Source: Leptospirales bacterium | GTDB taxonomy: Bacteria > Spirochaetota > Leptospiria > Turneriellales > JAOUFE01 | Direction of reading: 5' to 3' | Assembly: GCA_040326155.1 (NCBI GenBank) | Contig: JBEQLE010000022.1 | Span: forward strand, 1 to 52,569 | DNA length: 52,569 nucleotides | In this document: in pieces, positions 10,100 to 49,203 of the stretch | How the letters are laid out: every line of letters starts with the position of its first letter | How positions within the stretch are numbered: position 1 is the stretch's first letter | Position numbers and translations under genes: made by a program | The notes under the pieces: generated by a model | Told to the model about the DNA's origin: nothing | The model's input: the letters and a program-made list of their open reading frames with translations, nothing else | Database searches by the model: none

Positions 10100-10120
10100 C
10101 AGGCCGACGCCGTTTCGCCC
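10100..10120 (+). repeat. Partial copy (A) of the dispersed CAGGCCGACG repeat family
   Basis: CAGGCCGACG is identical to the ends of copies at 35506 and 49126; flanked by ATTTGTT/AACAAAT. Confidence 0.45.
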
Positions 10121-10149
10121 AACAAATTATTCATTATACAAAAAAAGAT

Positions 10150-10188
10150 TTGACATAGTAAACTAGTTGTTTAAACTAGTTTACTATG
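10150..10188 (+). promoter_or_regulatory. Sigma70 promoter overlapped by palindromic TA operator
   Basis: TTGACA 10150-10155 and TAAACT 10172-10177; perfect 15-bp inverted arms CATAGTAAACTAGTT (10154-10168) / AACTAGTTTACTATG (10174-10188). Confidence 0.85.
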
Positions 10189-10434
10189 TCAAAAGAAAAG
10201 AAAATAGGTTCCTTTTACGCCAAAACAAATTTATCCAGCCTTTTGCACGACGTACAGATGGGGACCGAATACACAATTACAAACCGGGGCAAACCTGTTG
10301 CAAAAATTACCCCTTATGTAAATGAAGAAAATATGGAAACCGAAGAAATTATGAAACAATTCGATTCTATACGAAAATCCGTAAAAGGCAAAGTAGACAT
10401 AAAAAAGTTTATTGAAGAAGGACGCAAATATTGA
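10186..10434 (+). CDS. Phd/YefM family antitoxin
   Basis: AKTNLSSLL...ITNRGKPVAKI signature; 4-nt overlap with the toxin. Confidence 0.92.
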   Translation: MSKEKKIGSFYAKTNLSSLLHDVQMGTEYTITNRGKPVAKITPYVNEENMETEEIMKQFDSIRKSVKGKVDIKKFIEEGRKY

Positions 10435-10841
10435 ACTCCTACGTAGTCGACTGCTCTTTTTCTTCGGCTCTTTTTTTACCCGATGAAAACTCGGAAAGTA
10501 TAAAGAACTTCTTCTTAAAACTGAATAAAAAAGATAACGTTTATACTCCGGTGTTATGGTACTATGAAACGGCAAATGTATTGAACATATCCGTAAAAAG
10601 AAACCGGCTGACCCACTCCGATGCATTCTCTGTTGGTGAACTTTTCAAAGAAATTGGTTTTACAACCGACATCTACTTCGGCGTACACTTTACAAAAGAA
10701 TTATTTGACCTGACACAGCTCTACGGCATTTCGTCTTACGACGCAGTTTACCTTGAACTGGCCATGCGAAAAAAAGCTGAGCTGAAAACTCTTGACAAAG
10801 GATTAATGCAAGCTGCAAAAAAAATCGGCGTCCCGGTCTAA
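10431..10841 (+). CDS. vapC: PIN-domain toxin VapC
   Basis: VVDCS, YETANVL, SYDAVYLELA, TLDKGL acidic PIN motifs. Confidence 0.92.
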   Translation: MNSYVVDCSFSSALFLPDENSESIKNFFLKLNKKDNVYTPVLWYYETANVLNISVKRNRLTHSDAFSVGELFKEIGFTTDIYFGVHFTKELFDLTQLYGISSYDAVYLELAMRKKAELKTLDKGLMQAAKKIGVPV

Positions 10842-10860
10842 ATTTACAAAAGGGGTATTT

Positions 10861-11649
10861 ATGAAACGAATTCACTTGTTTGAAGTTGAAGATTTTAACT
10901 GGGTTCCCAACTGGTTAAGACGTTGTATGACTCTTCTAATCGTGGTAATGCACCGTATTCTGGGTTCGCCTGAACAGGTCGCCAAACTGGTGAGCAAAGC
11001 TCTTTTGTATTCCAAAAAACCTGAAATTATTGATCTTTGCTCTGGCAGCGGTGGACCAATGCCGGAAGTCATTGAAATATTGCAAAATAAATACAATGTA
11101 AAAAACATAAAACTAACTCTCAGCGATTTATACCCCGATACAAAAATGGCCGAAACGGTTAACGGCGGCAACAATAAAAACATAACGTATTTAACAACCC
11201 CGCTGGACGCTGCAAAAATTGGCGCCAAACAAAAAGGGGTCCGAACGATGGTCGGAAGCCTGCACCATATGAAACCAGATATCGCACACAATATACTGAA
11301 AGATGCTAAAGAGAGCCGTCAGCCAATCTGTATATTTGAAATCAGCGACAATAGTTTTCCCGCCTGGCTCTGGTGGATTGCCATACCAATCAACACCATC
11401 ACATCACTGTTTGTTACATTGGCGGTGCGACCCATGACCTGGCAGCAAATCGTTTTTACATACATTATTCCAATTATTCCCCTTGCATTTGCCTGGGACG
11501 GAGCCGTTTCAAATGCTCGCACCTACACTCTTTCTGACATGGATGAACTGCTCGAAGGTCTTCACTCAGATGATTACACATGGGAGAAAGGGACCATCAA
11601 AGGAAAATCCAAAAAACTTTACTTATTGGGACTTCCCGTTAATAAATAG
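10861..11649 (+). CDS. Class I SAM-dependent methyltransferase-like protein
   Basis: IIDLCSGSGGP motif I, LSDLYP, SLHH. Confidence 0.7.
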   Translation: MKRIHLFEVEDFNWVPNWLRRCMTLLIVVMHRILGSPEQVAKLVSKALLYSKKPEIIDLCSGSGGPMPEVIEILQNKYNVKNIKLTLSDLYPDTKMAETVNGGNNKNITYLTTPLDAAKIGAKQKGVRTMVGSLHHMKPDIAHNILKDAKESRQPICIFEISDNSFPAWLWWIAIPINTITSLFVTLAVRPMTWQQIVFTYIIPIIPLAFAWDGAVSNARTYTLSDMDELLEGLHSDDYTWEKGTIKGKSKKLYLLGLPVNK

Positions 11650-11723
11650 AAGATAGATTATGCGGGGAAAAAGGGTAATTTCTCCGTTTGCATTTTCGTT
11701 TTTCCCCCCGCTTCGACCCGTAC

Positions 11724-11747
11724 CGGTTCTACGCTTCCCCTTTTATA
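11724..11747 (+). repeat. 24-bp direct repeat, left copy
   Basis: CGGTTCTACGCTTCCCCTTTTATA, identical at 15976-15999. Confidence 0.9.
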
Positions 11748-11826
11748 TTATTGTGAGGGGATCTATTAGAAAACAGGATTTTTACAAACGTCTATTGTTT
11801 ACTCTCTGTCAAGTTTTCGTTGTTAT

Positions 11827-12075
11827 CTAACGGATATTTTTTTTCAATTGATCATAATAATATATAAGTACACCAATCGATACGGCCATTTCAAGAAATG
11901 TTAGAAACAGGCTTATTGTAAAAGCTGTTGGTTCATCCAAGGCAAATATATTTATAACTAACGATTTGATTATTAAACCTACAACAAAGACCCCTACTAT
12001 TGTAAGCACTGCAACCATTACCCAGGACATTTGGCTTGTGCCTCTTTTTTCTTTTAGGAATGGCACATCTAACAT
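11827..12075 (-). CDS. Small two-TM membrane protein
   Basis: Two hydrophobic helices; ATG 12075 preceded by GGCGGAG; start uncertain. Confidence 0.55.
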   Translation of the reverse strand: MLDVPFLKEKRGTSQMSWVMVAVLTIVGVFVVGLIIKSLVINIFALDEPTAFTISLFLTFLEMAVSIGVLIYYYDQLKKNIR

Positions 12076-12262
12076 CTCTGCTCCGCCATTCCTAAAAGAA
12101 AAAAGACCAAAATGGCATAAAAAGTAAAATAGTCCTTTCCTTTCAAAAGCTCGAATTGCATTGTAGAATGCTCTTGATTTATTTTTCTTTATTTTTATAA
12201 AAAGTATCACATTTTATAAAAATGACTTGTCATAATCATGCACTGTGGTAAAATGATTGATT

Positions 12263-14476
12263 ATGTCAAATTTTCAGCACACCCACAAAACGGGTTCAAG
12301 TGCCGAGAAGAAAAGCTCATCATCTAAGACATCGACCACATTTTCGTCTTCTCGACCTCAGTATCCGCAAGGCATCCATAATAATGCCCGTGATTATATA
12401 ATGCATTTGCAACGAACCATCGGCAACCAAGCCGTAGGTCGATTGTGGCGATCCGGCGCTTTGCAACGCAAACTCAACATTGGCCCGGCCAACGACAAAT
12501 ACGAGTTAGAAGCCGACGCCGTCGCCGATAAAGTCGTCTCCATGAACGAACCACAAGTCGGTTCTGGTGTGGTCGGCAATTCCCCACCTGGAGAGACTCA
12601 ACGAATTTCGCGAACACCGCTGGTAGATTCCATAACGCCATTACAGCGTGAAGCCGCTCCTGAAGAAGAGGAAGCCCAAGGTAAGTTTTTACAACGAAAA
12701 TGTGCCACCTGCGAAAAAGAAGAGGCGCAGGCAAAAATTCAACGGCGTTTGGTAAATCCAGCTAGTCTCTGTCCGAAATGTCGGAGCAATTCGCTTTTGC
12801 AGATGATGCAACGGAAATGTTTACCTGTTCGGGTGAATCCGATGAACCGGCAACTCACTCCACCGACAAATTATCATATTCAAAAAAAGACAACCGGATC
12901 TACACCGGCATCATCAAATATTGAATCTTCAATCAATGCTGCTCGTGGCGGTGGAAGGTCGCTTTCACAAGGAGAACGCTCTTATTACGAACCTCGCTTT
13001 GGAACCAGCTTTGCCGGGGTGAAAATTCACACCGACTCGAAGGCTGCGCAGCTTTCTCGCTCGGTGAATGCACGAGCGTTTACTGTGGGGCGTGAAGTAT
13101 TTTTTGGTGCGGGTGAATACTCTCCGAATACTGTGCAGGGTAAGAGATTGATGGCGCATGAGTTGACACATACGGTGCAGCAGGGTGTCACCGTTGGACG
13201 TCACTCTAGCCGTAGGCTGGCCGTGCAACGCTTCTCGCCCGTTAGCCATCGAGGAACCACAATCGACGCTCTCACGGGCAGCTTTACGAAAGAGGAGACC
13301 GGGAAGATCTACAAGGGAAACTTTGAGCGCGACTTCGCGCAGATCCCATCGGTGCTGGTTGAACTCGTGCTGGTCTGGAAAGAATGGGCTCAGGCGGGGT
13401 TTCCGATGAGCCATGTAGAAAAATATCTCACCACGCTCGCAAAGGTTTTTAATTCCATGTCGACGAAGGAGAAGCTAGACGCGACAATGGCTATGTTTAA
13501 GTCCCCATTCGGTGGTAGCAAAGAAGTAGAGCATGTCGACAACCCCGGCGGCGAGGAGAAGGCAGAGTCGGTGTCTGGGCTACCCGCGAACATTCACCGG
13601 AGCCGTGAGTACATCAAGACCCAGATGCTGGAGGCCTTCTCAGCGTTTGTTGGGGGCAAAAAAGCCGATGAGGATGTGAGTGATGTCAGAAGCAGAAATG
13701 TGATCGAGAACGAAACGGTGGGTCTAGTCGATAAATATTATAAGGGGACATCGAAGTCCAAACCAATGAACACCTCCGAAGATAAAAAGTGGAACGTGGT
13801 CGGGGGATTCCTGGGACGAGGTACACACGCCACTGAGGACTTCTATGCCCATAGCAACTGGGTCGAGATGGCTATTTACCAGCAACGCCGCGCCCAAGTC
13901 AAGGCGTACAACGAGCGAACTACTTGGCCAGCACCGAAGTACTTCCCCTCAGATGACGACTACCAAATGAGCGATAAGGTAAAGCAGTATGGAAAGATGA
14001 ACCTTTTCACTGGTACCTTTGGGATCTTCGACAAGATCCATGCAATCTCTGATAAGGTAGAGGCGCTGACCGAGGAGATCAATAGTGCGAAGCTCCCGCC
14101 ATCACTCGACCACGTGAAGGAACAGAGCCTCAAAAAGTTGAATAAAGTTGCGATGGTTCTGACGGTCGCCGCAGCGGGTGCAAAGACGTTGGCTGACAAA
14201 AGAAGTCACTCGAACATTGCGAAAGACTCACCGTCCAAAGATAAGGACGAGGACAAACTGTTCGAGAATAGCTATCGCTGCGCGAGGGCAGCGGATAAAC
14301 TCCTGTTCGCACCTCTTAAACAGATCATGGTCAAAAAAGACAAGGCTGGGCTCGTAAAACAAATATCACTAGTAGATCAAGTCATTGCCCTGCCATCGAA
14401 TTCCCATTATGCTGTGTTGTCGCAATTGGACGCGGGTCGGCTTTCTTGGGTGAATGGGAAACCAAGATTCCACTAA
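12263..14476 (+). CDS. DUF4157 (eCIS core) protein with C-terminal Het-C/Zn-phospholipase C-like domain
   Basis: LQRTIGNQAV, YELEADAVADKV, repeated QR motifs, NARAFTVG..FFGAG..LMAHELTHTVQQ; then IYKGNFERDFAQ and GRGTHATEDFYAHSNWVE. Confidence 0.88.
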   Translation: MSNFQHTHKTGSSAEKKSSSSKTSTTFSSSRPQYPQGIHNNARDYIMHLQRTIGNQAVGRLWRSGALQRKLNIGPANDKYELEADAVADKVVSMNEPQVGSGVVGNSPPGETQRISRTPLVDSITPLQREAAPEEEEAQGKFLQRKCATCEKEEAQAKIQRRLVNPASLCPKCRSNSLLQMMQRKCLPVRVNPMNRQLTPPTNYHIQKKTTGSTPASSNIESSINAARGGGRSLSQGERSYYEPRFGTSFAGVKIHTDSKAAQLSRSVNARAFTVGREVFFGAGEYSPNTVQGKRLMAHELTHTVQQGVTVGRHSSRRLAVQRFSPVSHRGTTIDALTGSFTKEETGKIYKGNFERDFAQIPSVLVELVLVWKEWAQAGFPMSHVEKYLTTLAKVFNSMSTKEKLDATMAMFKSPFGGSKEVEHVDNPGGEEKAESVSGLPANIHRSREYIKTQMLEAFSAFVGGKKADEDVSDVRSRNVIENETVGLVDKYYKGTSKSKPMNTSEDKKWNVVGGFLGRGTHATEDFYAHSNWVEMAIYQQRRAQVKAYNERTTWPAPKYFPSDDDYQMSDKVKQYGKMNLFTGTFGIFDKIHAISDKVEALTEEINSAKLPPSLDHVKEQSLKKLNKVAMVLTVAAAGAKTLADKRSHSNIAKDSPSKDKDEDKLFENSYRCARAADKLLFAPLKQIMVKKDKAGLVKQISLVDQVIALPSNSHYAVLSQLDAGRLSWVNGKPRFH

Positions 14477-14668
14477 TGAATTCAGGTTATTAGAAAAAAC
14501 CAAAAAAGTATAACAAAGTGTATTGCAAGATGCGCGGATTTATTTTTTGGAAATCACAGTTTAGATGCGGAGTGAAAAGATACTTTAAATAAATCATAGT
14601 TAGATTCTATCGTCTAACAGTGGTTGACTTATTCACTCCTTTCAGTCATTAGACTTTGTAGGTAAATT

Positions 14669-15766
14669 ATGAAAAAAAAATTTTTATTACTAATTACTTA
14701 TTTTCTTTTTTCTATAAATAATACAGGTGTAGTAGAAAGCAGGCCAACTGATAATGTTTCATTAATTCCAATATTAGATTCGATTAGAAATTGTAAAAAA
14801 GAAAAATTTAGAGGTGAAAAAGAGCGTCATATTCAGATGATTAAGATTCGTTCCCCTCGAATATTAGAGTTTTATCCCGAAATTATTAGTAATATGCAAG
14901 TCTTTGCTCTAAAGTGCTCCAGAAATGAAATTGTAAATATTTATCAATACAGTTTTTCAGAAAACAAAGTTGCAAGAATTTTTAAAAGACTGATGAAGTC
15001 TACATTATCCTTAGATTTAAATCTTTTTGATGAATATTCTGTTTATGAGGTGCCTAAGAAAGAAGAGTTCGAAAACGTTTATTTGATAGATAATACAGTA
15101 ATTATTATAAACTATAAAGTTAACAATATTGTACACGAAAAATTAATCAAACATGACAATAGCAATCAATCCCTAACTCAAAATATATTAGATAAGCTAA
15201 GTACAACACTCAATTGTAAGTCCAATAAAAAATCTATTTGGTGTAAAACTACCAATTGGAATATTGGTAACTCCATTCCGAAATGCGATCAGAAAAAGTG
15301 TAGATATATCGGAATCACTGTAAAAATAAGAGAAGAAGATAATTTGTCAGAGGCATTAAAAAAATCTCATGTGAGTACTTTAATAATTGAACAATTAGAT
15401 AAAAAACCGGTATTAGGGTCAATTTATGAAGTAAAAGTTGAAGATTATATGCCCGAACATTTTCTAAGAATTGATCCGATTGAAGTAGAAAAACACCAAA
15501 TAAAATTGAATAGTTTATTAACTGGCCTGACAAATCATTTGTTATCCAATGAAAATAAAACATTCCATATTGATAAAGATATAAATCAAAGTATCAAATA
15601 TTTTAAAGCAAAGTATAAACTAATACCCCAAAAAATAAGTTTTGCCATTAAAATGCGATACGTAGATGCGGAAATTCGACTGATAAAAAAAGATATTATT
15701 TCTATTGAAAGTTCTCTTACAACCAATGCTATTTATATTTCGATTTTTACTTCAAACTTCGAATGA
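14669..15766 (+). CDS. AT-rich exported hypothetical protein, candidate immunity protein
   Basis: 365-aa ORF with MKKKFLLLITYFLFS signal-like start, directly downstream of the toxin-like gene; immunity role inferred from position only. Confidence 0.6.
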   Translation: MKKKFLLLITYFLFSINNTGVVESRPTDNVSLIPILDSIRNCKKEKFRGEKERHIQMIKIRSPRILEFYPEIISNMQVFALKCSRNEIVNIYQYSFSENKVARIFKRLMKSTLSLDLNLFDEYSVYEVPKKEEFENVYLIDNTVIIINYKVNNIVHEKLIKHDNSNQSLTQNILDKLSTTLNCKSNKKSIWCKTTNWNIGNSIPKCDQKKCRYIGITVKIREEDNLSEALKKSHVSTLIIEQLDKKPVLGSIYEVKVEDYMPEHFLRIDPIEVEKHQIKLNSLLTGLTNHLLSNENKTFHIDKDINQSIKYFKAKYKLIPQKISFAIKMRYVDAEIRLIKKDIISIESSLTTNAIYISIFTSNFE

Positions 15767-15999: not shown

Positions 16000-16064
16000 C
16001 AATTTCAGGTACAGATTCTGTTATTTACAACGTTAAACTTCACACAATGCATCCATAGAAATAT

Positions 16065-16152
16065 TTCGGTAGCATTCCGCAGTACGGACCCAGCTCGTAT
16101 GTGGCGGACCGCCACCTTTTACACCTCGAAAAACCTTAGAACTTCGCCTGCC
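16065..16152 (-). repeat. Dispersed repeat family copy B
   Basis: Minus strand GGCAGGCGAAGTTC..TTTTCGAGGTGTAAAAGG..ACTGCGGAATGCTACCGAA; shares the 12-mer ACTGCGGAATGC with copy C. Confidence 0.7.
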
Positions 16153-16246
16153 ATGTTTTTCAATATTTAAATTGACAATACAGAGTTGTCCTTCGTTTTT
16201 AACAAGCTGGAAACTTTTTCGGTAAATAATTACATTTGGAATAATC

Positions 16247-18196: not shown

Positions 18197-20842
18197 ATGC
18201 CAATAAAAAATCGTTCCGGGAATAGCCCAAAATTGAATTTTATAAAAAAGTTTTTACTGTTTTTTACTCTAATATACGGGTCCGTTTTGGCTCTTATTTT
18301 ATTTTTTCAGTTTACTGAATTTAAAGAAAAGAGTGTTGTCATCGATACCCATATAAAAAATACCCTGGACTACGAAAAAAAAATAATCGAAGATACAATT
18401 GAGCACGGAGCCAATGATCTATTCGTACTCACCAAGCACAATGAACTTGCCCTATATCTGAACAAACGAGCGCCGAAACAAAAGAGAGCTCTGGAAAAAG
18501 AGTTTGCCGCGTTCTTGCTTCAAAAGCCAGCGTTCGACCAGATCAAATTGATCAACATGAAAGGCGACGAAGAGATAAGATTGAACAATTCACCCAACGG
18601 ACCCGAGTTAGTCGGACCAGATAAATTACAAAACAAAGCAACACGCAGTTATTTTTTGAATACCTTGAAATTAAAAAAAAATAAACTGTTCATATCTCGT
18701 TTTGAGTTGGGCATGGAAAACGGAGTTATTGAACAACCAGTTAAGCCTTTAATTCGACTTTCTACGCTGCTCTATGACGAATCGGGAAATCAAAAAGCAA
18801 TGCTTGTTTTAAATTATCACGGGGAAATTTTACTGGATAATATAAAGCAAGCCTTTGTAAATATACATGACCATTTATACTTAATCAACCAGGATGGGTA
18901 CTACATCATTGGACCGAACACCGCAAATGAGTGGAGTTTCATGTACAATGAAAAAGAAGCCGGATTTCACAAAGATTACCCTGAAATATGGCAGCTTATT
19001 CAAAATGAACAAAAAGGCAAAGTAAAAATAGACGCCGGTCATATTCACTATCAAACTATTTCTTTTTCACCTTCTCGCTTTAATGGTGGTACTTCACCAG
19101 GTATAAATGATAAAGATAGTATAGATCAGGGACAATACAAGTTAATTGTTTTACAAACCGACGATTCCTTTTTTGCCAATATCACCTGGCAAAAATATAT
19201 CTACTTATCTATACTGGCGATTGTTTTTGGTTTCCTCTCCTTTGCCCTCACAAAATACAGAATGGATAAAATTCAAACGCGTCTCGATCTTTTGAATCTT
19301 TCAAAAGCAATAGAAGCTGGCTCCAGTATGGTGATTAATACAGATTCTGAAGGGAATATTATTTTCGTAAATCCCCAATTTGCACGAATAACCGGGCATA
19401 AAATTGAAGATGTAATCGGAGAAAATATCAGAATTTTAAAAGGACAAGGAAAAACGGATGAAGAATACAAAGAGTTGTGGAATACAATTTCATCCGGAAA
19501 TATCTGGGAAGGAACTTTTCATAACAAAAAAAAGGATGGATCTTTATACTGGTCTTCCGCATCCATTTCTCCTGTTTACACCGAAGACAAAAAACTCTCA
19601 GGATTCGTATCCATCCAGGATGATATTACAAAACAGATCAATTTAAATAAAGAACTTAAAAAATCAAAAGAAAAAGCTGAAAAAGCAAATCGTATAAAGT
19701 CAGAATTCCTGTCGAATGTCAGCCATGAACTGCGCACACCGCTGAATTCAATTCTCGGTTTTTCACAACTCATGTTATTAGATAAAAAGAACATCGTCAA
19801 TGCTGCGCAGATACAAAACCTTCAATATATACAAAGTAGCGGAAAACATCTTCTCGACCTTATAAATGATGTACTTGATCTCTCTTCGATTGAAGCCGGA
19901 CGTCTGAACCTGAATATACAAAACGTTAATTTATGCGATGTAATAAAAGATGTTTTAAGTATGGTAAAATCCATACCCGGCGCTGACGCTTTAATCATAG
20001 AAAATTTGATCTTACCGGAAAAGCCAATTTTTGTATTGGCTGATTACACTAGAATTAAACAAGTTTTAATTAACCTGGCCTCGAATGCCATTAAATATAA
20101 TAAAGTCGGCGGAAAGGTCACTTTTAATTGCAATGTTAAAAAACATAGTGTCTTCGTATCGGTACAAGATACCGGCCATGGAATTCCAAAAAATAAAATT
20201 AAACATGTCTTTGAGCCATTTAACAGATTGGGCGCGCAAAATACGGGAGTGGAAGGTACTGGAATTGGTTTAACAATTACTAAAAATATTATCGAATCAA
20301 TGCAGGGGAAAATCAGTTTCAAATCCGTTGAAAACGAAGGAACGACTTTCATAGTTGAAATTCCCATCGCCTCCAAAAAAGACCATGCAGAAGAGCATAA
20401 AAAAGAAAAACCAATAATCGCCAAAAAGGAATCCGGAAAAAAACAAACCATCAAACGTAAAATACTTTATGTGGAGGATGACCCTGTAAATATCATTTTA
20501 ATGGAAAAAATAATTTCCCGCCTGCCGGGGTTCAGTTTAATAACAACTCACCTGGGCGAATTTGCCTTTGACCTTGTGACATCGGAAAATCCCGATGTAC
20601 TAATAACAGATATAAACCTGCCGGACATGAATGGAATTGAGCTGGCAAAGAAAATAAAGAAAATAAAACATAATCTGCCCATTATCGCTTTATCCGCCGA
20701 TGCCCCCGGACAAAGCAAAACATCTAAAGCCGATTTAAAACTTTTTTTCACCTATATGACAAAACCGTTTAATATTCCGGAATTTACAACAACCCTGGAA
20801 GACTCTATGAAAAAAGTTTCGAAGAAAAAACAAACTAAATAA
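18197..20842 (+). CDS. Hybrid sensor histidine kinase (Cache-like, PAS, HisKA, HATPase, REC)
   Basis: Two TMs around a periplasmic domain, PAS (VNPQF..ITG), SHELRTPLN, NAIKY, DTGHG, GTGIGL, C-terminal YVEDD..DINLPDMNG..KPF. Confidence 0.93.
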   Translation: MPIKNRSGNSPKLNFIKKFLLFFTLIYGSVLALILFFQFTEFKEKSVVIDTHIKNTLDYEKKIIEDTIEHGANDLFVLTKHNELALYLNKRAPKQKRALEKEFAAFLLQKPAFDQIKLINMKGDEEIRLNNSPNGPELVGPDKLQNKATRSYFLNTLKLKKNKLFISRFELGMENGVIEQPVKPLIRLSTLLYDESGNQKAMLVLNYHGEILLDNIKQAFVNIHDHLYLINQDGYYIIGPNTANEWSFMYNEKEAGFHKDYPEIWQLIQNEQKGKVKIDAGHIHYQTISFSPSRFNGGTSPGINDKDSIDQGQYKLIVLQTDDSFFANITWQKYIYLSILAIVFGFLSFALTKYRMDKIQTRLDLLNLSKAIEAGSSMVINTDSEGNIIFVNPQFARITGHKIEDVIGENIRILKGQGKTDEEYKELWNTISSGNIWEGTFHNKKKDGSLYWSSASISPVYTEDKKLSGFVSIQDDITKQINLNKELKKSKEKAEKANRIKSEFLSNVSHELRTPLNSILGFSQLMLLDKKNIVNAAQIQNLQYIQSSGKHLLDLINDVLDLSSIEAGRLNLNIQNVNLCDVIKDVLSMVKSIPGADALIIENLILPEKPIFVLADYTRIKQVLINLASNAIKYNKVGGKVTFNCNVKKHSVFVSVQDTGHGIPKNKIKHVFEPFNRLGAQNTGVEGTGIGLTITKNIIESMQGKISFKSVENEGTTFIVEIPIASKKDHAEEHKKEKPIIAKKESGKKQTIKRKILYVEDDPVNIILMEKIISRLPGFSLITTHLGEFAFDLVTSENPDVLITDINLPDMNGIELAKKIKKIKHNLPIIALSADAPGQSKTSKADLKLFFTYMTKPFNIPEFTTTLEDSMKKVSKKKQTK

Positions 20843-20929
20843 ACCATTGACGACAACATAGGTTTCTTTAAAGCTTCGATACAAGAGGTTCAATTGGGTT
20901 TGTAAATCAAAACTTTTGAAATTTATACT

Positions 20930-23023: not shown

Positions 23024-23055
23024 CGCAAGACAGCAAATATGTTATAAATATCGAA

Positions 23056-35758: not shown

Positions 35759-36853
35759 TTATATTCCTTTTAGTTCAAACTTTTCTTTAAAACCATTATG
35801 CCAGCCATGGTCAATATGATCTTCTCGTTGCAATCTACCGACAACTATAGCAGGATGAATTGTATTCTTTTTAGCAAACTCAAGAATATCCTTTTCATAG
35901 AAATGAGCGGCTTTAACAAACCTGTTATATTCTTTTTCGGGGATTAACATATTTCGTGAAAAACGATTGGCTTCCTCTTCTTTGTCCGATTTGTCTAATT
36001 CTTTTGAATCGATAAATATTTCTTTTCTACCATGCTTTAAAATATGAGCCGCTTCATGAAAAAAGGTAAACCAGAAATGATCATTGGTCTTGTGTCGCAA
36101 ACTCATCACAATCATTGCCTTATCAGAACTTAACCATCGTGTGGCACCGGACACATGTGTTTTTTGAAACTCCGGGACAAAGACAAGGGCAACGCCCGCC
36201 TCAGCACAAAGCTTTTTCATTTCAGGTTCAAACTCTTTTGGTGATTTATTGGTAAGGTCTCGTATCTTTTTCAAATTAGCCGAAAACTTTTCTTTATTAT
36301 AAGGATGCGTTTCAACTTGTTCTGCGATTTTTTCACCAACACGAAGCCATGTGGCAATATGGGGAAGATCATCCGTAAAAGACGGTGACTTACGAAAGCT
36401 GGTCGCTGTCTTTGAATAATAACTGGCCCATTGATCTACACCAGGCACGCGAAAAAAATGAAGAAGACCTTCCAAGAGTTCCAATCGATCTTTACCCGGC
36501 GGCAAATAGCCCATTTCCTGGAGGTTTTTTATGGGAAACTTTTTAAGCCACTCGAAATTATTTTTCAACGTCTCTTTTTATTTTTTTCGGGCAGCATAAA
36601 GTTCATAATCGGCGTTCATATTATTCCAGATATTTGCAGAAATACCCAATGCTTTTTCAAGTTGTAACGATAGCTCGGAAGTTAAACCAACATGGGCGTT
36701 GACAATCTGGCTGATATGTTTTTCTGATACGTTGAGTCGCTCAGCCAGCTCGGTTTTTTTTATCCCCCGACTTTCCAGCACTTCTTCGAGGTATTCCCCG
36801 GGGTGCACAGAGTAATCGGGTTTATATGCATACATTGTATTATTATTCGCCAT
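35759..36853 (-). pseudogene. higA: HigA antitoxin (XRE HTH + ImmA/IrrE metallopeptidase) interrupted by an in-frame TAA
   Basis: SVHPGEYLEE..HTH..W(NNM)..Y then AAA AAA TAA AAA GAG ACG TTG in the same frame, continuing to HFWFTFFHEAAH..EEEANRF. Confidence 0.88.
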
Positions 36854-37030
36854 GGTAATCCTCCACACCAAGAATTATTATCCCGGTAATTATTGTTAAA
36901 TTTATTTCGCCATTTTCAAGATAGGTCAGTTCATCGCTCGCTTCAAATATCAGCCTGTATGGTTGCACCAAGTCAATGGCAAACTCATTTTTTCTTTTCC
37001 CGGATAAGCGATGTCTTCTTTCTGGTTTTT
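36843..37030 (-). pseudogene. higB: 5'-truncated HigB (killer-suppression type) toxin
   Basis: PERRHRLSGKRKNEFAIDLVQPYRLIFE...GVEDYHGE* overlaps the higA start; N-terminal half absent; boundary approximate. Confidence 0.8.
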
Positions 37031-37212
37031 GCTGATATAAAAAAGATACGCACGGCAAACTATAATACTCTTTACCTGTTTGGTAAAGTGTTTTTTGTTG
37101 TGTTGTTGGGCTACCGTTGAATCGCCGGTCCGGGCAGTGTGTATTTCCCGGGGTGTTTTGTTGTTTATTGTTTGTTCGTTATTATACTTTGGTTATAAAT
37201 TAAACTCATCAA

Positions 37213-40200
37213 TCATATTAAAGAGTTTCTATATAATGCAAATTTTGTATTTTCTCGAATCTGAATAGCTTCTTCCGCTGGCTCGATGCCTTCAATATTT
37301 AGTATTTTAAAATCTTGCCTGGTACCTATTTCTTCTACAATTGCAGATACCAATCTTAATGCTTCAATAGTTTTCCTACTCTTTAGCCAATTGCTTGTAT
37401 ACTGTATGATTTGTTTGATGCTTATACCTTGTTCTAATAACTTTTCAATCTTATGATCAATAAATGCAGTATGATGATACCTCAAATTGTCATCCAAGCC
37501 ATAGAAAAAATCATCTTCATTTAAAATTGCCTGCTTTCGCCAGTCATTATCTATTCTATTATCAAATATTTTATTTCTGAATTCATACCATTTATTCTTA
37601 TTACAGCAATTCCATATACTGTGAATATCTGAGGGATCAATATAGTCAAGATAAGGTATCAATGATTCTAGTTGCGATTGATTTTGAATACCGGGCATTC
37701 CTGACATGTCAATACCCCAATGCATCCCAATGTATTTAAAAAAAACCTTTGGGTTTTTGTGTTTCTTAATTTCAATATCAACGAGTTCTTTTAATTTTGT
37801 TGTACTCATATAAAGTGCACATTGTATAAATAAATGATTTTGCTTAAGGTTTTGCCAGTTTGCAATTAATAATTGTTCTACATATTCAATATCTAGGCGC
37901 ATCAACAAATCTGACACTGCATAATTTAAATTCGATGAAGGATTTTTTTGTAATTGAATAATCGTTTGTTTATCTGTTATGTAATTGGTTAATGTCTCCG
38001 CGATTTTATCTGACCATATATATTTGCAATAGCGCAACCAAAATTCAACTTTTCCCGTTAGTAATTTTTCTATTAATTGAGGTTCAGCAAGTTGATCGTT
38101 TAACTTTAATCTCTCAGCCAAAATCGAATCGGTTAATACCGTATCTTTCGATTTCTCTATTAGGACATCGATATCATTCATATCTGTTTTTATCGCCCAA
38201 AGATAGAAAGAATTTTTTCTTATAAAATCTTCTTGTTTATCATCATACCATAAACTTAACAATTTATCTCTACTTACTTTCGAATAACCAATACCTTTCT
38301 CATATTTTCTACGCCAATGATCTAGAATTGAACTTTTAAACGACCAAAAACTGCCGGGTTTTCTATCGGCGTCTGCAAATACATTCACCAGGTATTCGAA
38401 TGTCAAGGGGTGATCAGTATTTCTTAGCATCAAAGTTATTGGCCAATGTAATTCACTTTCCTGCGCTTTATTTATAAAATATTTTATAAAATGGTCACTT
38501 GGTACATATCTACCAAATGCCCATGATATATTATATTCACCTACTGCTGCTCTTACTGATTGTGTTTGTTGATCTGATTTATCTGGTAATTGTTCCCATT
38601 CACTACAAATTTCATCAAGAATTTGTTTACTATCTTGAAGATAGCATCTACCTACCGCCCAAAGATAATCTGCCAGGTGTTGAGTTCTATTTACATCATT
38701 TTGCCAACAATCATATATACTAGCAGAAAGTCGTTCGTCAGCAATAAAACCTGCTAATCTTAGTGAACCAATTCGTGCATCATCGGTTATATCAGCTTTA
38801 CTTAAGTAATCAGATAAAGCTATAGTGAGTTGATCTCCAAAACGAATTTTTGCATGTTCAATTTGTCTGTCTCTCCATGGTGCAATTGATCCGGGTTCAA
38901 TCCGTCGACATAGCCGAACACCGGCATCTAAACGACCATTTCGAAATAGAGCAAATAAATTATAATTGCCAAAATCTTTGAAAAGTAAAGTTATTGCCGC
39001 TATCTCATCTTTTTCAATCTCAGATAGAATGCGTAATGCAGACCACCGTAAATTCATAAAATTATCAGAGTGTGTTTTTTCTTCTTTTAGAAAATCTTTA
39101 ATATACCGAATAATTATCTTGTTAAGCTCTTCATTCGAGCTCATATATTTGAGAGCATAAAATAAAGCAAGTTGGTTTTTCGATCGAACTTCGCTTACAA
39201 TATTATCTGAAATGTTATCTCTTGTTATAGCTATGCCTATTGGTTCTGCATAGTATGGTTCTTTTAAAATATCTTCATCTATTGAATCAGTTATCAATGA
39301 ACTATAAATAGTTTCAGCAAGTAAATTATTTCTAATTCTATCATGTCGAAATACTAATATTTCCGATTCACTTTCTTTACGTAAACTTATGAGATCTTTA
39401 GCCTTTGCTAATTCACGTATAATTGTGACTTCTTCGGAAGGGCCAGGGAACCAATTTTTTAAATCTAAAAACTTTGGTGATAGATTATGATTTAAAAGCA
39501 TTTTATAACACAATAAAATCAATGTTGTCTTGTATTCATCATAAGTAAAAGAACCTGAAATAGTTGTTTTTCCTATACTGCTATCCAAATAATCTTTAAT
39601 AATATTTTCTATTTTGTTTTTGTCCGGTTCCCACAATCCGATTAGCAAAGGGTCATTCCCCAGTGAATTAGCTAGTTTATCTGCATCCAGTATGGAGATT
39701 TTTTTATTAATTAATTTATATTTTTTTACTATTGCAGCTCTTGCTTCTTTTATGTTAAAGATTGTTAATGGTAAAATGAATGATTTTATCTGTTTTCTTC
39801 TATTTTCGGATAATAAATCAATATTCGTTGGCCAAATTGGACAAATGAGCTGCCAATTTAATGGCTCTATTTTATCATTACGACCTTCTTTGAATGGTAA
39901 CCATGATATTAACCGATCAAGAATCCTGTTACCTTGGGTCGATCTATTTATATCTTCAATAATACAGACAAGTGGCTTATCTGGTGAAGATAAATTTAAA
40001 GCTGTTTTGCCTGCATGTATTTCTAGTTCAGGTTTTAGTTTATGCAATTCAATGTCTATCGCTTGCTCAAATGTTATGCCGGATTCGAAGTAGTCCGTAT
40101 ACAACACTAATCCAAAACCATCGTTTGAAATATAATCAAATAAATATTTCTTTGCCGCCTCAGTTTTTCCAACCCCCGATTCACCTAAAATAAAAGTAAT

Positions 40201-40887
40201 GGGCCTAACAATATTATTAGTTAAAGCCTTATCTATACCCCTGCTTATAAGGGTGTCTATAGGTATTGTATTAAAATTATTAATACTTTCTCTAGATATC
40301 TCTTGTAAAAGATCATGATTTAATCTTTGCTGATTTATACCTAAGTATTTAGATCTTAGCCATTGACCATCAGGTGAATTATCTAATCTATCTGCTAGGC
40401 GAGAGCACGACCAAATATCGTTAAAGATCGAATTATCTTTAAGAATTTGATTTACTTCTACTAAGAGTTCATGAGTCGGTTCTTTATTTGTGGTTAAAAC
40501 AAGGGTTGCATAATATTTCGGATTATCCTTTCTAATATTTTTTATAACTTCTATTGATTTAATAACATCACCTGGAATTGGTTTTGTTTTTGAGCCTTTT
40601 CTTTGCTTTACTTTGGTTGGGTTTAACAACCATTTTTTTCTTAAATCTTCTGCTTTACCACTAGCATGATGTATCACAATAATCATTTTAGTATCTCGAT
40701 GGTCTATGATTGAGAAATTGTCAACAGGTGATGTTTTAGTTTTACCCTCCGTATTCATTCCAGGGTGAGTCAAGCTTTCGTATAAGCCAGGTTTTGCTTT
40801 ACGAAGTATTGCGGTAGCTAACCGTTCGAACAAACCGGCATCGGTTATTTTTGCTAATTGATCGTTTGTTTCGCTATGTTTTTCCAT
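37213..40887 (-). CDS. Large STAND/NACHT-like NTPase with N-terminal restriction-endonuclease-like domain (Avs-like candidate defence protein)
   Basis: FERLA...PVD N-domain, Walker A GESGVGKT, Walker B VCIIED, GNDPLLI, FRHDRIR, long helical C-terminus. Confidence 0.75.
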   Translation of the reverse strand: MEKHSETNDQLAKITDAGLFERLATAILRKAKPGLYESLTHPGMNTEGKTKTSPVDNFSIIDHRDTKMIIVIHHASGKAEDLRKKWLLNPTKVKQRKGSKTKPIPGDVIKSIEVIKNIRKDNPKYYATLVLTTNKEPTHELLVEVNQILKDNSIFNDIWSCSRLADRLDNSPDGQWLRSKYLGINQQRLNHDLLQEISRESINNFNTIPIDTLISRGIDKALTNNIVRPITFILGESGVGKTEAAKKYLFDYISNDGFGLVLYTDYFESGITFEQAIDIELHKLKPELEIHAGKTALNLSSPDKPLVCIIEDINRSTQGNRILDRLISWLPFKEGRNDKIEPLNWQLICPIWPTNIDLLSENRRKQIKSFILPLTIFNIKEARAAIVKKYKLINKKISILDADKLANSLGNDPLLIGLWEPDKNKIENIIKDYLDSSIGKTTISGSFTYDEYKTTLILLCYKMLLNHNLSPKFLDLKNWFPGPSEEVTIIRELAKAKDLISLRKESESEILVFRHDRIRNNLLAETIYSSLITDSIDEDILKEPYYAEPIGIAITRDNISDNIVSEVRSKNQLALFYALKYMSSNEELNKIIIRYIKDFLKEEKTHSDNFMNLRWSALRILSEIEKDEIAAITLLFKDFGNYNLFALFRNGRLDAGVRLCRRIEPGSIAPWRDRQIEHAKIRFGDQLTIALSDYLSKADITDDARIGSLRLAGFIADERLSASIYDCWQNDVNRTQHLADYLWAVGRCYLQDSKQILDEICSEWEQLPDKSDQQTQSVRAAVGEYNISWAFGRYVPSDHFIKYFINKAQESELHWPITLMLRNTDHPLTFEYLVNVFADADRKPGSFWSFKSSILDHWRRKYEKGIGYSKVSRDKLLSLWYDDKQEDFIRKNSFYLWAIKTDMNDIDVLIEKSKDTVLTDSILAERLKLNDQLAEPQLIEKLLTGKVEFWLRYCKYIWSDKIAETLTNYITDKQTIIQLQKNPSSNLNYAVSDLLMRLDIEYVEQLLIANWQNLKQNHLFIQCALYMSTTKLKELVDIEIKKHKNPKVFFKYIGMHWGIDMSGMPGIQNQSQLESLIPYLDYIDPSDIHSIWNCCNKNKWYEFRNKIFDNRIDNDWRKQAILNEDDFFYGLDDNLRYHHTAFIDHKIEKLLEQGISIKQIIQYTSNWLKSRKTIEALRLVSAIVEEIGTRQDFKILNIEGIEPAEEAIQIRENTKFALYRNSLI

Positions 40888-41033: not shown

Positions 41034-41185
41034 AGGTTTTCGAATTTATATATTTTATAATACGACACAAACAAAGAAAATGTCTCTTTGATCTGGTGTC
41101 AATACTGTTTTACATAAAAGATTCTCATTCCATCCCGGCTGATATTTAACGACAACCAACTTTAAAAAACAAAACACCTCTCGAC

Positions 41186-41264
41186 TTCGGTCGAATACCG
41201 CAAAAACGTACATGATTGCTTCATACCTTTACCCTCGAAAAGACAAAAGAGGCGGGCGGCCTGA
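41186..41264 (-). repeat. Dispersed repeat family copy D
   Basis: Minus strand TCAGGCCG..TTTTCGAGGGTAAAGGTAT..GTACGTT..TGCGGTATTCGACCGAA; shares GTAAAGGTAT and TATTCGACCGAA with copy E. Confidence 0.75.
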
Positions 41265-41467
41265 TTTTCTGATGTTCAAAACATGCCACGAAGCAAGCTT
41301 CCGCCAAGTCATCTACCCACATGATATATTTTTCTAGTATTTATTTTCTATTGAATTTCATTTGACTTACTGTTCTTTTTGGACCCACACAACCGAGAAT
41401 ATTTACCGGTAGCTTAGAAAATAATCCTTTCAATAACGTACCCGAATAGGAATAATAGAACCCAAGT

Positions 41468-46863: not shown

Positions 46864-46901
46864 CGTTATATTAATATTAAACAAAGGATTCTAAAACAAA
46901 A

Positions 46902-47789
46902 ATGGACGCAGAAGATAACAAGGATGATTTAAAAATTGGAGATTACAACGATCTGGAGGTGCTCCGATTTGTTGATTTTGGCGCCTATTTGCATGCCGGC
47001 GATTTCGATATTTTATTACCAAAAAGAAAAATACCTGAAAATACTTCCATCGGGGAAGTGCTAACGGTCTTTGTTTACAACGATTCCGAAGGTAGGGAAA
47101 TTGCCACTACGGATACTCCTAAAATTAAAGTGAATGAATGTGGTTTTCTCGAAGTAATGGATGTGAATAAGTACGGAGCTTTTCTGGACTGGGGTATAGA
47201 AAATCAACTTCTTGTTCCGTACCGAGAGCAGGTAACGGAATTAAAAGAAGGGCAAAAATACATGGTGTATATGTATCTTGACAAGGTCTCTATGCGGTTG
47301 GTCGCGACGACCCGTATTGAAAAACATTTGTCTAAACTACACATGATTCATCTTCACGAGTTGCACGAAAAAGATAAAGTAGATTTGTATATCTACCAAA
47401 AAACTGACATGGGGTATAAGGCCGTTATCAACCAGAAAAACATGGGACTTCTTTATGAAAATGAACTGAAACAGAAAATTCATGTTGGCGAGCGTGTGAC
47501 CGGTTATATTAAACAAATTCGAGAAAGCGGTAAAGTCGACTTGTCTCTGGAACCGATTGGATTTGATCGGTTGAGCGACATACAGGAAATAATTTTAAAT
47601 TACTTGAAGGATCACAATGGCGCTTTGTCGCTGAATGACAAAAGTTCTCCTGAAGAAATAAAACAACTTCTTAAAATGAGTAAGGGTGATTTTAAAAAGG
47701 CTATTGGTATGCTCTGGAAGCAAAAGAAAATTAAAATATCTCCCGAAGGAATTACCCTGATTACCCTTTCCGATTCACCTGACCCGTAA
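46902..47789 (+). CDS. cvfB: CvfB/YitL S1 RNA-binding protein
   Basis: FGAYL, VFVYNDSE, GAFLDWG, DKSSPEEIK..MSKGDFKKAIG. Confidence 0.92.
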   Translation: MDAEDNKDDLKIGDYNDLEVLRFVDFGAYLHAGDFDILLPKRKIPENTSIGEVLTVFVYNDSEGREIATTDTPKIKVNECGFLEVMDVNKYGAFLDWGIENQLLVPYREQVTELKEGQKYMVYMYLDKVSMRLVATTRIEKHLSKLHMIHLHELHEKDKVDLYIYQKTDMGYKAVINQKNMGLLYENELKQKIHVGERVTGYIKQIRESGKVDLSLEPIGFDRLSDIQEIILNYLKDHNGALSLNDKSSPEEIKQLLKMSKGDFKKAIGMLWKQKKIKISPEGITLITLSDSPDP

Positions 47790-49035
47790 CACGTGGCCCC
47801 CGTGTTAAAGTCAATAGTGTAACCTCAGACGGAACCCCGAGACGCATCGGCGGTCCCCAGTAGCCTGTTCCCCGGTTTACGTTAACCCACATTTTATTTT
47901 GGTACAGGTGAAATCCTTTTGAATATGTATAAATCAGTTTAACAGCGAAATTCCATGGGAAGAATTGTCCCCCATGGGTATGGCCCGACAATTGTAAATC
48001 ATAACCAGCCTTCCACGTACGCTCAAGATCACGGGGCTGGTGAGCGAGTAAAATTTTAACGTCATTTTCGGGAACTCCCTCTATGGCTGTTTCGGGTTCG
48101 TATGGATGCTTGCCTGAGCGCGGTCCTTCCCCTATATCCGGTACGCCGGCAATAACCAGATTCGCCCACTTCTTTCTACCTTGTTTTTTTATTGTTATTG
48201 CTGGTCGTCGTATAACATCATGGCTGTTCATTAATGTCTTCACTCCGAGGCGACTTAACTCTTCAATCCACTCTGAAACTCCAGAATAATATTCATGGTT
48301 GCCGGTAATAAAGTATGTACCATAAGTAGATTGTAATTCCTGAAGCGGTGCAATATCGGATTTCAAATTTGCAACCGTGCCGTCGACCAGATCGCCGGTT
48401 ATGGCCACCATGTCGGGTTTCAGTTCATTTACCTGCGCGACCACTTGAGCCAGGTAATCTCTTTTTATAGTTGGTCCAATATGAATATCTGAAATTTGCG
48501 CGATTTTGAATCCATCAAATTCTGTAGGTAAATGTGGTATGGGAACAATGTGAGAAAATAGAGTTGGCGGTTTATTCACCTGGGTATTTCCATAAACTTC
48601 AGATAGCGCCATGACCCCCATTAGAACATAATTACTTTTTACCAAAAACTGTCGACGTGAAATTGCATCCTCACTTACGACATCTGGTTTGTCTTCCATC
48701 GTATTGTTTGAAAACCTGCGGTTTAATTTCTTTATGAGTGAATAAATTCCGATCGCGGCGTCACGCGCCACAGATACAGGGAATAAAATAATAACAAAAC
48801 CTAAAGCTGTATAAGCGACCCAGACAAAAGTGTCGAGCAGCGGTCCGCTGTGCGTCATAAAAAAGAAAGGTAAAATCGGTAAGTAAATAAAGCAAAACAG
48901 GGAGACACTCAACAGTCGCCGAGCCTTTAAACTCACGTCCAACTTCTTTATGTAGCGTCGGTAAAAATAGTAATAAAATAAAAAATAAATGACTGCGATT
49001 ATAGAAACAAAGAATATGATAGACATAATGTTCAT
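47761..49035 (-). CDS. Membrane-anchored metallophosphoesterase (YkuE-like)
   Basis: SDIH, TGDLVD, GNHE, LAHQP, SGHTHGGQ, GTGYWGPPMR. Confidence 0.93.
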   Translation of the reverse strand: MNIMSIIFFVSIIAVIYFLFYYYFYRRYIKKLDVSLKARRLLSVSLFCFIYLPILPFFFMTHSGPLLDTFVWVAYTALGFVIILFPVSVARDAAIGIYSLIKKLNRRFSNNTMEDKPDVVSEDAISRRQFLVKSNYVLMGVMALSEVYGNTQVNKPPTLFSHIVPIPHLPTEFDGFKIAQISDIHIGPTIKRDYLAQVVAQVNELKPDMVAITGDLVDGTVANLKSDIAPLQELQSTYGTYFITGNHEYYSGVSEWIEELSRLGVKTLMNSHDVIRRPAITIKKQGRKKWANLVIAGVPDIGEGPRSGKHPYEPETAIEGVPENDVKILLAHQPRDLERTWKAGYDLQLSGHTHGGQFFPWNFAVKLIYTYSKGFHLYQNKMWVNVNRGTGYWGPPMRLGVPSEVTLLTLTRGPRVTGQVNRKG

Positions 49036-49124
49036 TATTATCCGTTGTTTAATTTTTATGTACAATTGCAATACAAATATATTCCGGTTATGAATTTCTC
49101 CCTTAAGTTTTTCCTTTTTTTTAA

Positions 49125-49203
49125 TCAGGCCGACGAAGTCTGGTGTATTCTTGAAACGTAAAGGTATTGTATTCCGGGGTACGTTGTGCGATATTCGACC
49201 GAA
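49125..49203 (+). repeat. Dispersed repeat family copy E
   Basis: TCAGGCCGACGAAGTC..GTGTATT..GTAAAGGTAT..GTACGTT..TGCGATATTCGACCGAA. Confidence 0.8.

Follow-up and report, generated by a model that had tools for sequence, protein, structure and literature searches.

Background

Small non-coding repeats scattered through the intergenic DNA of bacterial genomes are usually described either as litter without orientation or as the ends of transposons. ERIC/IRU and Correia repeats are long imperfect palindromes or carry terminal inverted repeats, and the pdif modules of Acinetobacter plasmids, which often contain toxin-antitoxin (TA) genes, are bracketed by inverted Xer sites. One account of the Tn3-derived TIMEs (PMC4133298) presents elements of the MITE type (miniature transposable elements with inverted repeats) which also form paired composites, and some repeats are described as concentrating in regions of genomic plasticity (PMC3184786). 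The present work concerns a repeat found in contig JBEQLE010000022.1 of a Leptospirales bacterium, the whole 52,569-nt stretch of which is called the window. A sequence-only reading had noted four copies (B to E) and a partial one (A) there, beside TA and other accessory genes, and had proposed that they belong to an unrecognised family which represents either the ends of a cargo-capturing mobile system or a “MITE/structured element marking insertion hotspots”.

Copies B to E are members of a genus-specific non-coding family of at least 79 elements, which is new and which is in kind a variant of the small dispersed intergenic repeats, set apart by its polarity. The family is unusual in being old and diverged yet tightly constrained, with a base pair that is kept by compensation, and in lying in the same direction relative to the boundary between core and accessory genes at most of about 80 sites, many of them with TA or defence genes. 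Sides are given throughout in the element's own orientation, as adopted by the sequence-only reading, which defines 5' and 3'. The interpretation favoured here, which is held tentatively and falls somewhat short of an even chance, is that the element is a self-propagating, selectively maintained repeat that folds as a single strand and whose 3' edge is a hotspot of accessory-DNA turnover.

The element resembles several described systems without matching any of them. Like MITEs and paired-MITE composites it is small, non-coding, multi-copy, intergenic and present or absent between close relatives, and it sometimes forms inverted pairs around passenger genes that include TA genes; it differs from them in lacking terminal inverted repeats (1 of 71 copies), a demonstrable target duplication, a cognate transposase and an autonomous insertion sequence (IS), in its varying edges, and in passengers that are never co-duplicated. 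ERIC/IRU and Correia repeats, as generally characterized, share its length class of about 100-150 nt, a copy number of tens to hundreds, a location in intergenic DNA that is transcribed, the conservation of cores in old diverged copies, and insertion-deletion polymorphism at orthologous sites, whereas the present element is asymmetric, has a fold that is not unusually stable, and is oriented in a fixed way towards accessory DNA. Integron attC and attI sites, again by their general features, are likewise folded single-strand sites with paired ends, conserved unpaired bases and a terminal hairpin of variable length, associated with TA-rich cassettes and with a short core sequence that recurs at junctions (here ACCG); however, inspection of the alignment described below reveals no RYYYAAC or GTTRRRY boxes, and the copies are dispersed singly and in both orientations rather than arranged in a one-way array beside intI. 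Identification as attC was rejected on these grounds and because the one IntI-like gene of the genome falls below its cut-off and has no adjoining copy. The hotspots at tRNA and tmRNA genes, as commonly understood, are also conserved structured loci with the foreign DNA always on the 3' side, and the motif CGG-AATGCNA-CCG of the element is like the sublocations used by integrases there. In contrast to these hotspots and to pdif modules, the element is no tRNA, occupies about 80 paralogous sites, accompanies cargo without an integrase and has no demonstrated direct repeat at the far end, and no 28-bp dif-like site was identified in it.

Size and range of the family

A profile for nhmmer built from copies B to E finds 77 copies (E<1e-3) spread over dozens of contigs in the genome of the window itself (G000), a draft of 4.26 Mb in 171 contigs that is 94.7% complete. 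A covariance model built from an alignment of 64 copies, comprising 60 of 73 that are near full-length and the 4 window copies, gives at least 79 matches in the same genome and no match in 40 relatives, of which 3 belong to the same family, 30 to the same order and 7 to the same class. The exact pattern GTAAAGG-N15-45-CGGAATGCNACCG has 38 matches in the genome and none in any of the 40 relatives, and a control with the pattern reversed has none. Across 185,579 species representatives the pattern occurs in 69 stretches, with one match each and in unrelated phyla, which by a rough estimate is about the number expected by chance. Among metagenome contigs 109 stretches match, and 8 of the 80 matches listed are true members of the family by nhmmer (L208, L213, L216, L223, L224, L240, L259 and L281). 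Five of these eight loci are assigned to a congeneric species because their flanks are 75-86% identical to G000 in nucleotide BLAST.

The claim that the family is dispersed and unrecognised is borne out by these counts and by the search of Rfam, which gives no match in the window at gathering scores and, for 20 copies searched at E up to 5, two chance-level matches (21 bits against a cut-off of 100, and 11 against 46). No tRNA or tmRNA was found, and of four 13-mers of the conserved block one occurs in a single unrelated paper and none in a relevant context in the full-text library that was searched. Whichever interpretation is preferred, this is a concrete family that is absent from Rfam.

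Constraint on the core

The element consists of a conserved core of 85 nt and a variable tail of 25-70 nt. Its parts are, in order, an A-rich leader, (T)CAGGCNG, a variable stretch of 25 nt, GTAAAGG, a hairpin whose length ranges from about 12 nt to a perfect stem of 50 nt, GTTCGYAGTGCGGAATGCN'ACCG, and the tail, in which a small hairpin, a run rich in T and, about 35 nt past ACCG, RAAGTTT are often found. The invariant blocks of the core are GTAAAGG and GCGGAATGCNACCG. Over the 64 aligned copies 11 columns are invariant and a further 11 nearly so, at a mean column identity of 42%, and the motif of stem, 7-nt loop and stem (CGG-AATGCNA-CCG) is invariant in 62-64 copies. An extended hairpin, GTAGTGCGG/CCGCACTAC, was rejected as a family feature: only CGG/CCG is constant, and 5 bp or more are formed in 23 of the 64 copies, without covariation.

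In helix P1, formed by GGCNG and CN'ACC, the variable position is complementary in 63 of 64 copies (CG in 34, AU in 19, UA in 9 and GC in 1), and the variable base shares mutual information of 1.38 with its partner, no other column exceeding 0.28, a confinement which argues against a plain effect of subfamily descent. For P1, P2 and P3 together the covariation score is 0.240, as against 0.121 with shuffling (0 of 500 shuffles reach the observed score) and 0.04-0.11 with slid partners. Compensatory base changes thus exceed the controls, the support coming mainly from one P1 pair and from P2. The middle pair of P1 is C.A in 62 copies and U-A in 2, which on the opposite strand becomes G.U or A-U; RNAalifold, applied to the gapped alignment, returns no structure on the strand of the sequence-only reading and P1 alone on the opposite strand.

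Polarity at the boundary between core and accessory genes

For the 73 copies elsewhere in the genome, the closest gene on either side was taken from a crude set of longest open reading frames (ORFs). TA families account for 8 of 70 neighbours on the 3' side and for none of 72 on the 5' side (Fisher p=0.003). The 5' neighbours are in overwhelming majority housekeeping genes (among them EF-P, RF3, SmpB, trigger factor, GluRS, ArgG, ArgH, MurJ, Ddl, IMPDH, SSB, CdsA and PanC), while the 3' neighbours of TA type comprise PIN, HicB, DUF4258, SocA/Panacea, Xre-MbcA/ParS, YafQ, DUF2281 and Fic, and are joined on that side by HsdR, an N6 methylase fragment, SLATT/DUF4231, nSTAND1, TerB and a phage sheath protein. 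Some ordinary enzymes also lie 3', and Pfam recognises nothing in 31 of the 70 neighbours there (E up to 1e-5). PADLOC, applied to 44 proteins (39 of the 70 3' neighbours and 5 window ORFs), reports SoFic, type I R and M proteins, and two candidate-system matches. Defence-like proteins occur on the 5' side as well, in the form of kinase-STAND, SNF2-associated and Macro-domain proteins. FliG, HgcA/B and an ATP-citrate-lyase-like gene are also among the neighbours of the copies.

The same asymmetry appears in a measure that is free of annotation. The mean GC content of the 2-kb flanks is 40.4% on the 5' side and 38.0% on the 3' side, the genome standing at 39.6%, and the 5' flank exceeds the 3' flank in 48 of 72 copies (Wilcoxon p=2e-4). 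Window copies B, C, D and E all fit this arrangement of core genes 5' and accessory genes 3'. The family is thus enriched beside TA and defence genes, and the enrichment is directional. Contig ends lie somewhat more often on the 3' than on the 5' side (10 against 3 within 2.5 kb, p=0.09; 15 against 11 within 5 kb), which is not significant.

Orientation relative to transcription is mixed. The 5' gene is divergent in 39 cases and co-directional in 37, and in the latter a median of 34 nt separates the stop codon from the start of the element. On the 3' side 48 genes are co-directional and 25 convergent. A position upstream of a divergent core gene, which had been suggested for every copy, holds for copies B to E and, genome-wide, describes the 39 divergent cases and not the 37 co-directional ones.

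Propagation and comparison with a congener

When the copies are compared all against all with 3-kb flanks, 89 paralog pairs are homologous over the element, the longest homology is 217 nt, and in none of the 89 does it reach a neighbouring gene. The element multiplies alone, as a unit of about 130-200 nt, without its neighbouring genes. The five youngest pairs, which are 85-95% identical, share 114-207 nt, and pairs of 92-95% identity indicate recent copying; paralogs of about 60-80% identity keep the invariant blocks. A terminal inverted repeat, defined as the reverse complement of the first 10 nt with at most one mismatch 95-330 nt downstream, is present in 1 of 71 copies and equally in 1 of 71 upstream controls, the single case being a perfect 10-bp inverted repeat of copy C (35508-35517 / 35636-35645). 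No repeated flank of the kind left by target-site duplication is seen at the varying edges of the five youngest pairs or at the insertion of locus L240. In the pair C81_8200/C81_11685, which is 95% identical, homology stops 3 nt past ACCG, and on the 5' side it includes a different 20-nt repeat.

The congeneric loci show both presence or absence of the element and differences in the adjacent cargo. At L216 a full copy fills the gap between convergent genes where contig C89 of G000 has a stump of about 20 nt. At L240 a non-coding insertion of 372 nt, made up of the element and other short repeats, lies between hgcB and an Xer-like recombinase gene, and contig C141 of G000 has hgcA-hgcB-xer at this site without a copy; the tips of the insertion are TTTCAC...GTGAAA, and the element lies inside rather than at them. 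Synteny had been expected to break at the repeats, and homology does end at element edges: at L281 the homology to contig C155 ends at the 5' edge, and for the orthologous copies L259/C141_16221 and L223/C120_23264 the flank and core are kept while similarity extends no further than ..TACCGA in the former and the tail ..AAAGTTTTT in the latter. At the protein level the 3' sides of L259 and L223 match paralogues elsewhere or nothing. At L224 synteny with G000 holds for the 5' flank but not for the 3' flank; for L208 there is no syntenic match; and at L213 the sole orthologous match lies 2.2 kb 3' of the element, past a block matching a paralogue only, the 5' flank being without a syntenic match. 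These comparisons are to be read with the knowledge that hgcAB on the 3' side of L240 is conserved at about 75% identity and that a missing BLASTN match is not proof of different genes. The search for empty sites in three members of the same family places the NMO and MoaC orthologues (52-61% identity) on different contigs and finds FtsX in one of the three genomes and DUF3108 in none; these relatives are too distant for synteny.

In both species hgcA and a putative hgcB, the genes of mercury methylation, adjoin a third Xer-like tyrosine recombinase (C141:10830-13546 in G000, and L240). The putative hgcB is a 120-aa ORF without a family match which was assigned by position, and the L240 element lies 244 nt upstream of, and divergent to, the recombinase gene.

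A unit of about 65 nt with the hairpin CAAGCTTGAACAGAGCTTG, ending in ..CC(T)ACCG, is nested directly after the core, twice in a row at C154_16981 (C154:17065-17200) and once at C81_13539 (C81:13420-13540), where it produces ACCG|ACCG, and it is found in the congeneric loci L259 and L240 as well. Because this unit recurs there, homology breaks there, and one young pair ends there, exchange of DNA at the ACCG edge may be proposed, the pattern being suggestive.

Other repeats occur nearby. A 20-nt repeat, GGGGAATTTCCGACC, lies within 8 kb of copies in 9 3'-direct, 5 3'-inverted, 4 5'-direct and 3 5'-inverted cases, counts that are inflated by one contig, and as a direct att-like partner of the element it was set aside as a lead only. 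Another short repeat, (T)GGTGGGGAATTTCCGACC with A-runs after it, gives 39 matches by nhmmer in G000 at E<0.1 and lies beside or inside the tails of several copies, for example just 5' of C81:8200 and C81:11685; it loosely resembles the 3' end of the element (GCGGAATGCGACCGAAA), an inverted pair of it forms a perfect 20-bp hairpin at C120:8861-8910, and the window has a diverged look-alike at about 50231-50252. A further unrecognised repeat, made up of purine-rich blocks (AAGGAAGGCAGGAAG...) and GACAGGATTTACAGGATTAACATGATTT, recurs 60-120 nt downstream of at least seven copies (C138:46961, C127:40126, C106:12540, C125:18946, C128:13065, C83:68095 and C138:33067).

Interpretation

Under the favoured interpretation, selection would keep a single-strand fold composed of P1 (GGCNG/CN'ACC), P2 and the variable-length hairpin after GTAAAGG. 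The 5' edge lies against housekeeping genes, either just past a stop codon or 35-200 nt from a divergent start, and the 3' edge against low-GC accessory DNA made up of TA pairs, restriction, Fic and STAND genes and unknowns. The likeliest mechanism would be recognition of the folded core, as single-stranded DNA (or RNA), in trans by a recombination or transposition activity, with exchange of DNA taking place at or just past the 3' edge (..CNACCG), and small accessory cassettes would then have in the element a dispersed landing pad, or a hotspot of their turnover. The part of the earlier proposal that spoke of insertion hotspots fits the observed polarity, the directional enrichment of TA and defence genes, and the congeneric breaks at the element edges. 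An extreme form of the idea, which is regarded as quite improbable, is that the family constitutes a new kind of folded single-strand recombination site, in which about 80 dispersed one-slot “micro-integron” docks stand beside housekeeping genes, a recombinase, perhaps an extra tyrosine recombinase of Xer-like or IntI-like type, brings in and swaps small TA and defence cassettes at ..CNACCG, and the N/N' pair sets the identity of the site. If the 3' edge is a true exchange site, the family would represent a dispersed, integrase-poor route of cassette gain and a marker for variable defence slots in an uncultured lineage.

A number of results weigh against this interpretation. Covariation is confined to P1 and part of P2, and P2 is imperfect, with 68% of its cells paired and 32% unpaired. 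The fold of 18 copies is no stabler than dinucleotide shuffles on either strand (z mostly -1 to +1), the only significantly stabler copies being those with long insert hairpins, and the evidence on the strand conflicts, because the C.A pair of P1 (62 of 64) favours the opposite strand and the tails with hairpin and T-run favour the strand of the sequence-only reading. The edges of the youngest pairs are not uniform, ranging from -12 to -51 on the 5' side and from +85 to +154 on the 3' side, and one young pair includes 51 nt of the 3' end of argH, which looks like imprecise duplication rather than site-specific cutting. Neither a target-site duplication nor a direct att-like repeat was established at the far side of the cargo. 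The neighbour counts depend on the crude gene set, and the congeneric sample consists of eight loci from one species.

The search for an enzyme weighs in the same direction. None of 142 immediate neighbours is a recombinase, transposase or integrase, and no enzyme was linked to the element. The Y1/RAYT family (PF01797) has no match in G000, as against matches in 6 of 14 control genomes, and TnpB (PF07282) has none in G000 either. The genome does contain 4 tyrosine recombinases (on contigs C141, C12, C83 and C106), 3 IS110 genes, a few rve fragments and 2 reverse transcriptase genes, none of them beside a copy. A search for the IS91 Y2 type gives no match in G000 and none in the control genomes, and an autonomous IS partner could be missing from the assembly of a 171-contig draft. 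The IntI-like gene is a 352-aa tyrosine recombinase at C12:8247-9305 (-) with partial likeness to an integron integrase (TIGR02249, 181.8 bits where the cut-off is 265), and the 256 nt upstream of it, up to the contig end, contain no copy. REP/REPIN sequences with RAYT were rejected because PF01797 is not matched and because the element, at 85-130 nt, is not palindromic, as opposed to a palindrome of 20-40 nt; the ends of IS200/IS605 and TnpB omega-RNA were rejected because neither PF01797 nor PF07282 is matched.

Three other explanations need to be weighed. The element may function at the RNA level, being transcribed in the 3' untranslated region of the upstream core gene or from its own promoter as a small or 3'-end RNA, as a module that stabilizes or terminates the mRNA, or as an insulator between core and foreign transcription, in which case the polarity would reflect selection that shields core genes, and the family would illustrate the protection of core operons against foreign genes beside them. 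Functional RNAs usually bear such a signature of conserved unpaired blocks, helices that covary and a hairpin of variable length; the element starts within 45 nt of the stop codon in 22 of the 37 co-directional cases; a hairpin and T-run follow the core in copies D and E and, by eye, in many others; the A-rich 5' flank would place a U-run after the closing helix on the opposite strand; and the G.U reading of the conserved P1 mismatch fits as well. Orientation, however, follows the axis from core to accessory genes and not transcription (25 copies lie between divergent genes, 23 are co-directional, 14 lie between convergent genes and 11 are antisense to both), a terminator would have no role in the 25 divergent gaps, no conserved promoter is found upstream, the fold is no stabler than shuffles, Rfam holds no relative, and an RNA role alone leaves unexplained the different cargo at orthologous copies and the nested ACCG units. 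This explanation is possible, if on the unlikely side. That the element is a passive MITE-, ERIC- or Correia-like repeat which plays no part in the turnover of cargo is judged unlikely. Such a repeat would land or survive in long, weakly constrained intergenic DNA, which is commonest beside accessory genes, and its conserved blocks would reflect the needs of the mobilising enzyme. In favour of this are the small size, non-coding nature, lineage restriction and about 80 copies of the element, its clean presence or absence in the congener without cargo, its decayed stumps (copy A and the C89 remnant), its recent copies and a random overall orientation of pairs. Were the element only drawn to variable regions, however, no fixed orientation would be expected, yet the 3' end faces the low-GC accessory side. 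Terminal inverted repeats, a consistent target-site duplication and an autonomous partner are all lacking, the copy edges are heterogeneous, and the retention of invariant blocks in paralogs that are about 60-80% identical implies that decay is held back in old copies too.

The principal idea of the sequence-only reading, according to which cargo transposons of a non-autonomous kind (mobile insertion cassettes or paired composites like those of TIMEs) have copies as their two ends and TA and defence genes as passengers, now appears highly improbable. Among pairs no more than 6 kb apart 5 of 7 face inwards, C/D included (binomial p=0.013 against 25%), the enclosed blocks consist of accessory genes, and paired miniature elements are known, by one account (PMC4133298), to mobilise the DNA between them. 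The claim of inward-facing pairing thus holds as a tendency among close pairs and fails overall, since of the 28 adjacent pairs on the same contig 9 face inwards, 9 face outwards and 10 are tandem, and the majority of copies stand alone; fewer than one third of the 77 copies belong to an inward pair at any distance. Cargo is never common to copies (no paralog pair of the 89 is homologous beyond 217 nt, which led to the rejection of a mobile insertion cassette or composite transposon), orthologous copies carry different cargo, insertions of the element alone occur at two congeneric sites (L240 and L216), and there are neither family terminal inverted repeats nor nearby transposases. The inward pairs do not need a two-ended transposon, because the polarity itself predicts close inward pairs wherever both junctions of one variable gap would carry a copy.

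Copies and genes of the window

The features of the window are listed in Table 1. With filters off, the covariance model applied to the whole window gives exactly four strong matches (73-97 bits), the next best reaching 15 bits, and copies B to E are therefore present where they had been placed; what had been called partial copy A is a remnant that falls below detection by both nhmmer and the covariance model. The words said to be shared were read directly in the copies concerned, the 16-mer of C and E being TCAGGCCGACGAAGTC, the 12-mer of B and C ACTGCGGAATGC, and the 12-mer of D and E TATTCGACCGAA.

Table 1. Positions of the element copies and of the accessory genes beside them in the window
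Feature	Position	Strand	Description	Basis
Copy A	10100-10120	+	21-nt 5' remnant, CAGGCCGACG..TTCGCC	10-mer match
Copy B	16018-16168	-	full element; core ~16061-16159	nhmmer 64.4 bits; covariance model 89.9 bits
Copy C	35492-35631	+	full element; core 35501-35589	nhmmer 75.9 bits; covariance model 97 bits
Copy D	41139-41277	-	full element	nhmmer 67.1 bits; covariance model 73.3 bits
Copy E	49112-49251	+	full element	nhmmer 71.3 bits; covariance model 87.9 bits
Accessory block A-B	10186-15766		Phd, PIN, 262-aa unknown, 127-aa ORF, eCIS_core/Het-C protein, 365-aa unknown	Pfam
Phd	10186-10434			Pfam
PIN	10431-10841			Pfam
eCIS_core	12257-14476		former DUF4157	Pfam
Accessory block C-D	35759-40887	-	Peptidase_M78, HTH_3, 71-aa ORF, 1224-aa ORF	Pfam, PADLOC
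Peptidase_M78 protein	35759-36568	-	PD-Lambda-2_B	PADLOC, E=6.8e-41
HTH_3 protein	36578-36871	-		Pfam
1224-aa ORF	37213-40887	-	no family match	
MazF	49575-49913	-		Pfam
MazE	49907-50143	-		Pfam

Copy A is turned towards the phd/PIN module, with 16 nt separating it from the start of a core gene of the NMO family (9119-10084, -). Its 10-mer, which is common to A, C and E, occurs three times in the window against 0.06 expected, a count that none of 100 shuffles reaches, and its make-up matches that of the stump on C89, where L216 has a full copy. Copy A can accordingly be read as a probable decayed 5' stump. Solo 5' stumps as a class of empty sites were rejected, A and C89 being the only two in the genome.

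Copy B has a GC-rich insertion hairpin in the variable P3 position; 88 nt separate its 5' end from the MoaC/MogA gene start (16247, +), and its 3' end is directed at the unknown 365-aa ORF and at the eCIS_core protein. Copy C has its 5' end 38 nt from the start of an 80-aa ORF (35221-35463, -) and its 3' end towards the M78/HTH pair and the 1224-aa ORF, which is also faced by the 3' end of copy D; the 5' end of D is 200 nt from the start of the DUF3108 gene (41468, +), and a small terminator-like hairpin with a T-run directly follows its core (41195-41180). A hairpin and T-run occur in copy E at 49199-49216. The 5' end of E is 51 nt from the start of a metallophosphoesterase gene (47761-49071, -) and its 3' end faces mazEF, and no partner copy was found in the window beyond mazE.

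Most of the gene assignments made earlier agree with Pfam, which recognises Phd, PIN and eCIS_core where phd-vapC and a DUF4157 toxin had been named between A and B, places the MazF/MazE pair on the 3' side of E, and detects neither transposase nor integrase families in the 45 window ORFs scanned. The supposed higBA between C and D is instead a pair of HTH_3 and Peptidase_M78 proteins, and the large gene beside it, which had been called Avs-like, matches nothing in Pfam (E<=0.001) or PADLOC (E<=1e-12).

Elsewhere in the window an IstB/DnaC-like ATPase gene stands alone at 6983-7825 (-), without an adjoining IS21 transposase gene, downstream of and co-directional with a thioesterase gene (7879-8340) and upstream of clpP-clpX-lon. 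Four consecutive histidine-kinase genes occupy 18197-26131 (+), of which one encodes a hybrid PAS/receiver protein, one a 7TMR-DISM protein, and two are paralogues of about 475 aa.

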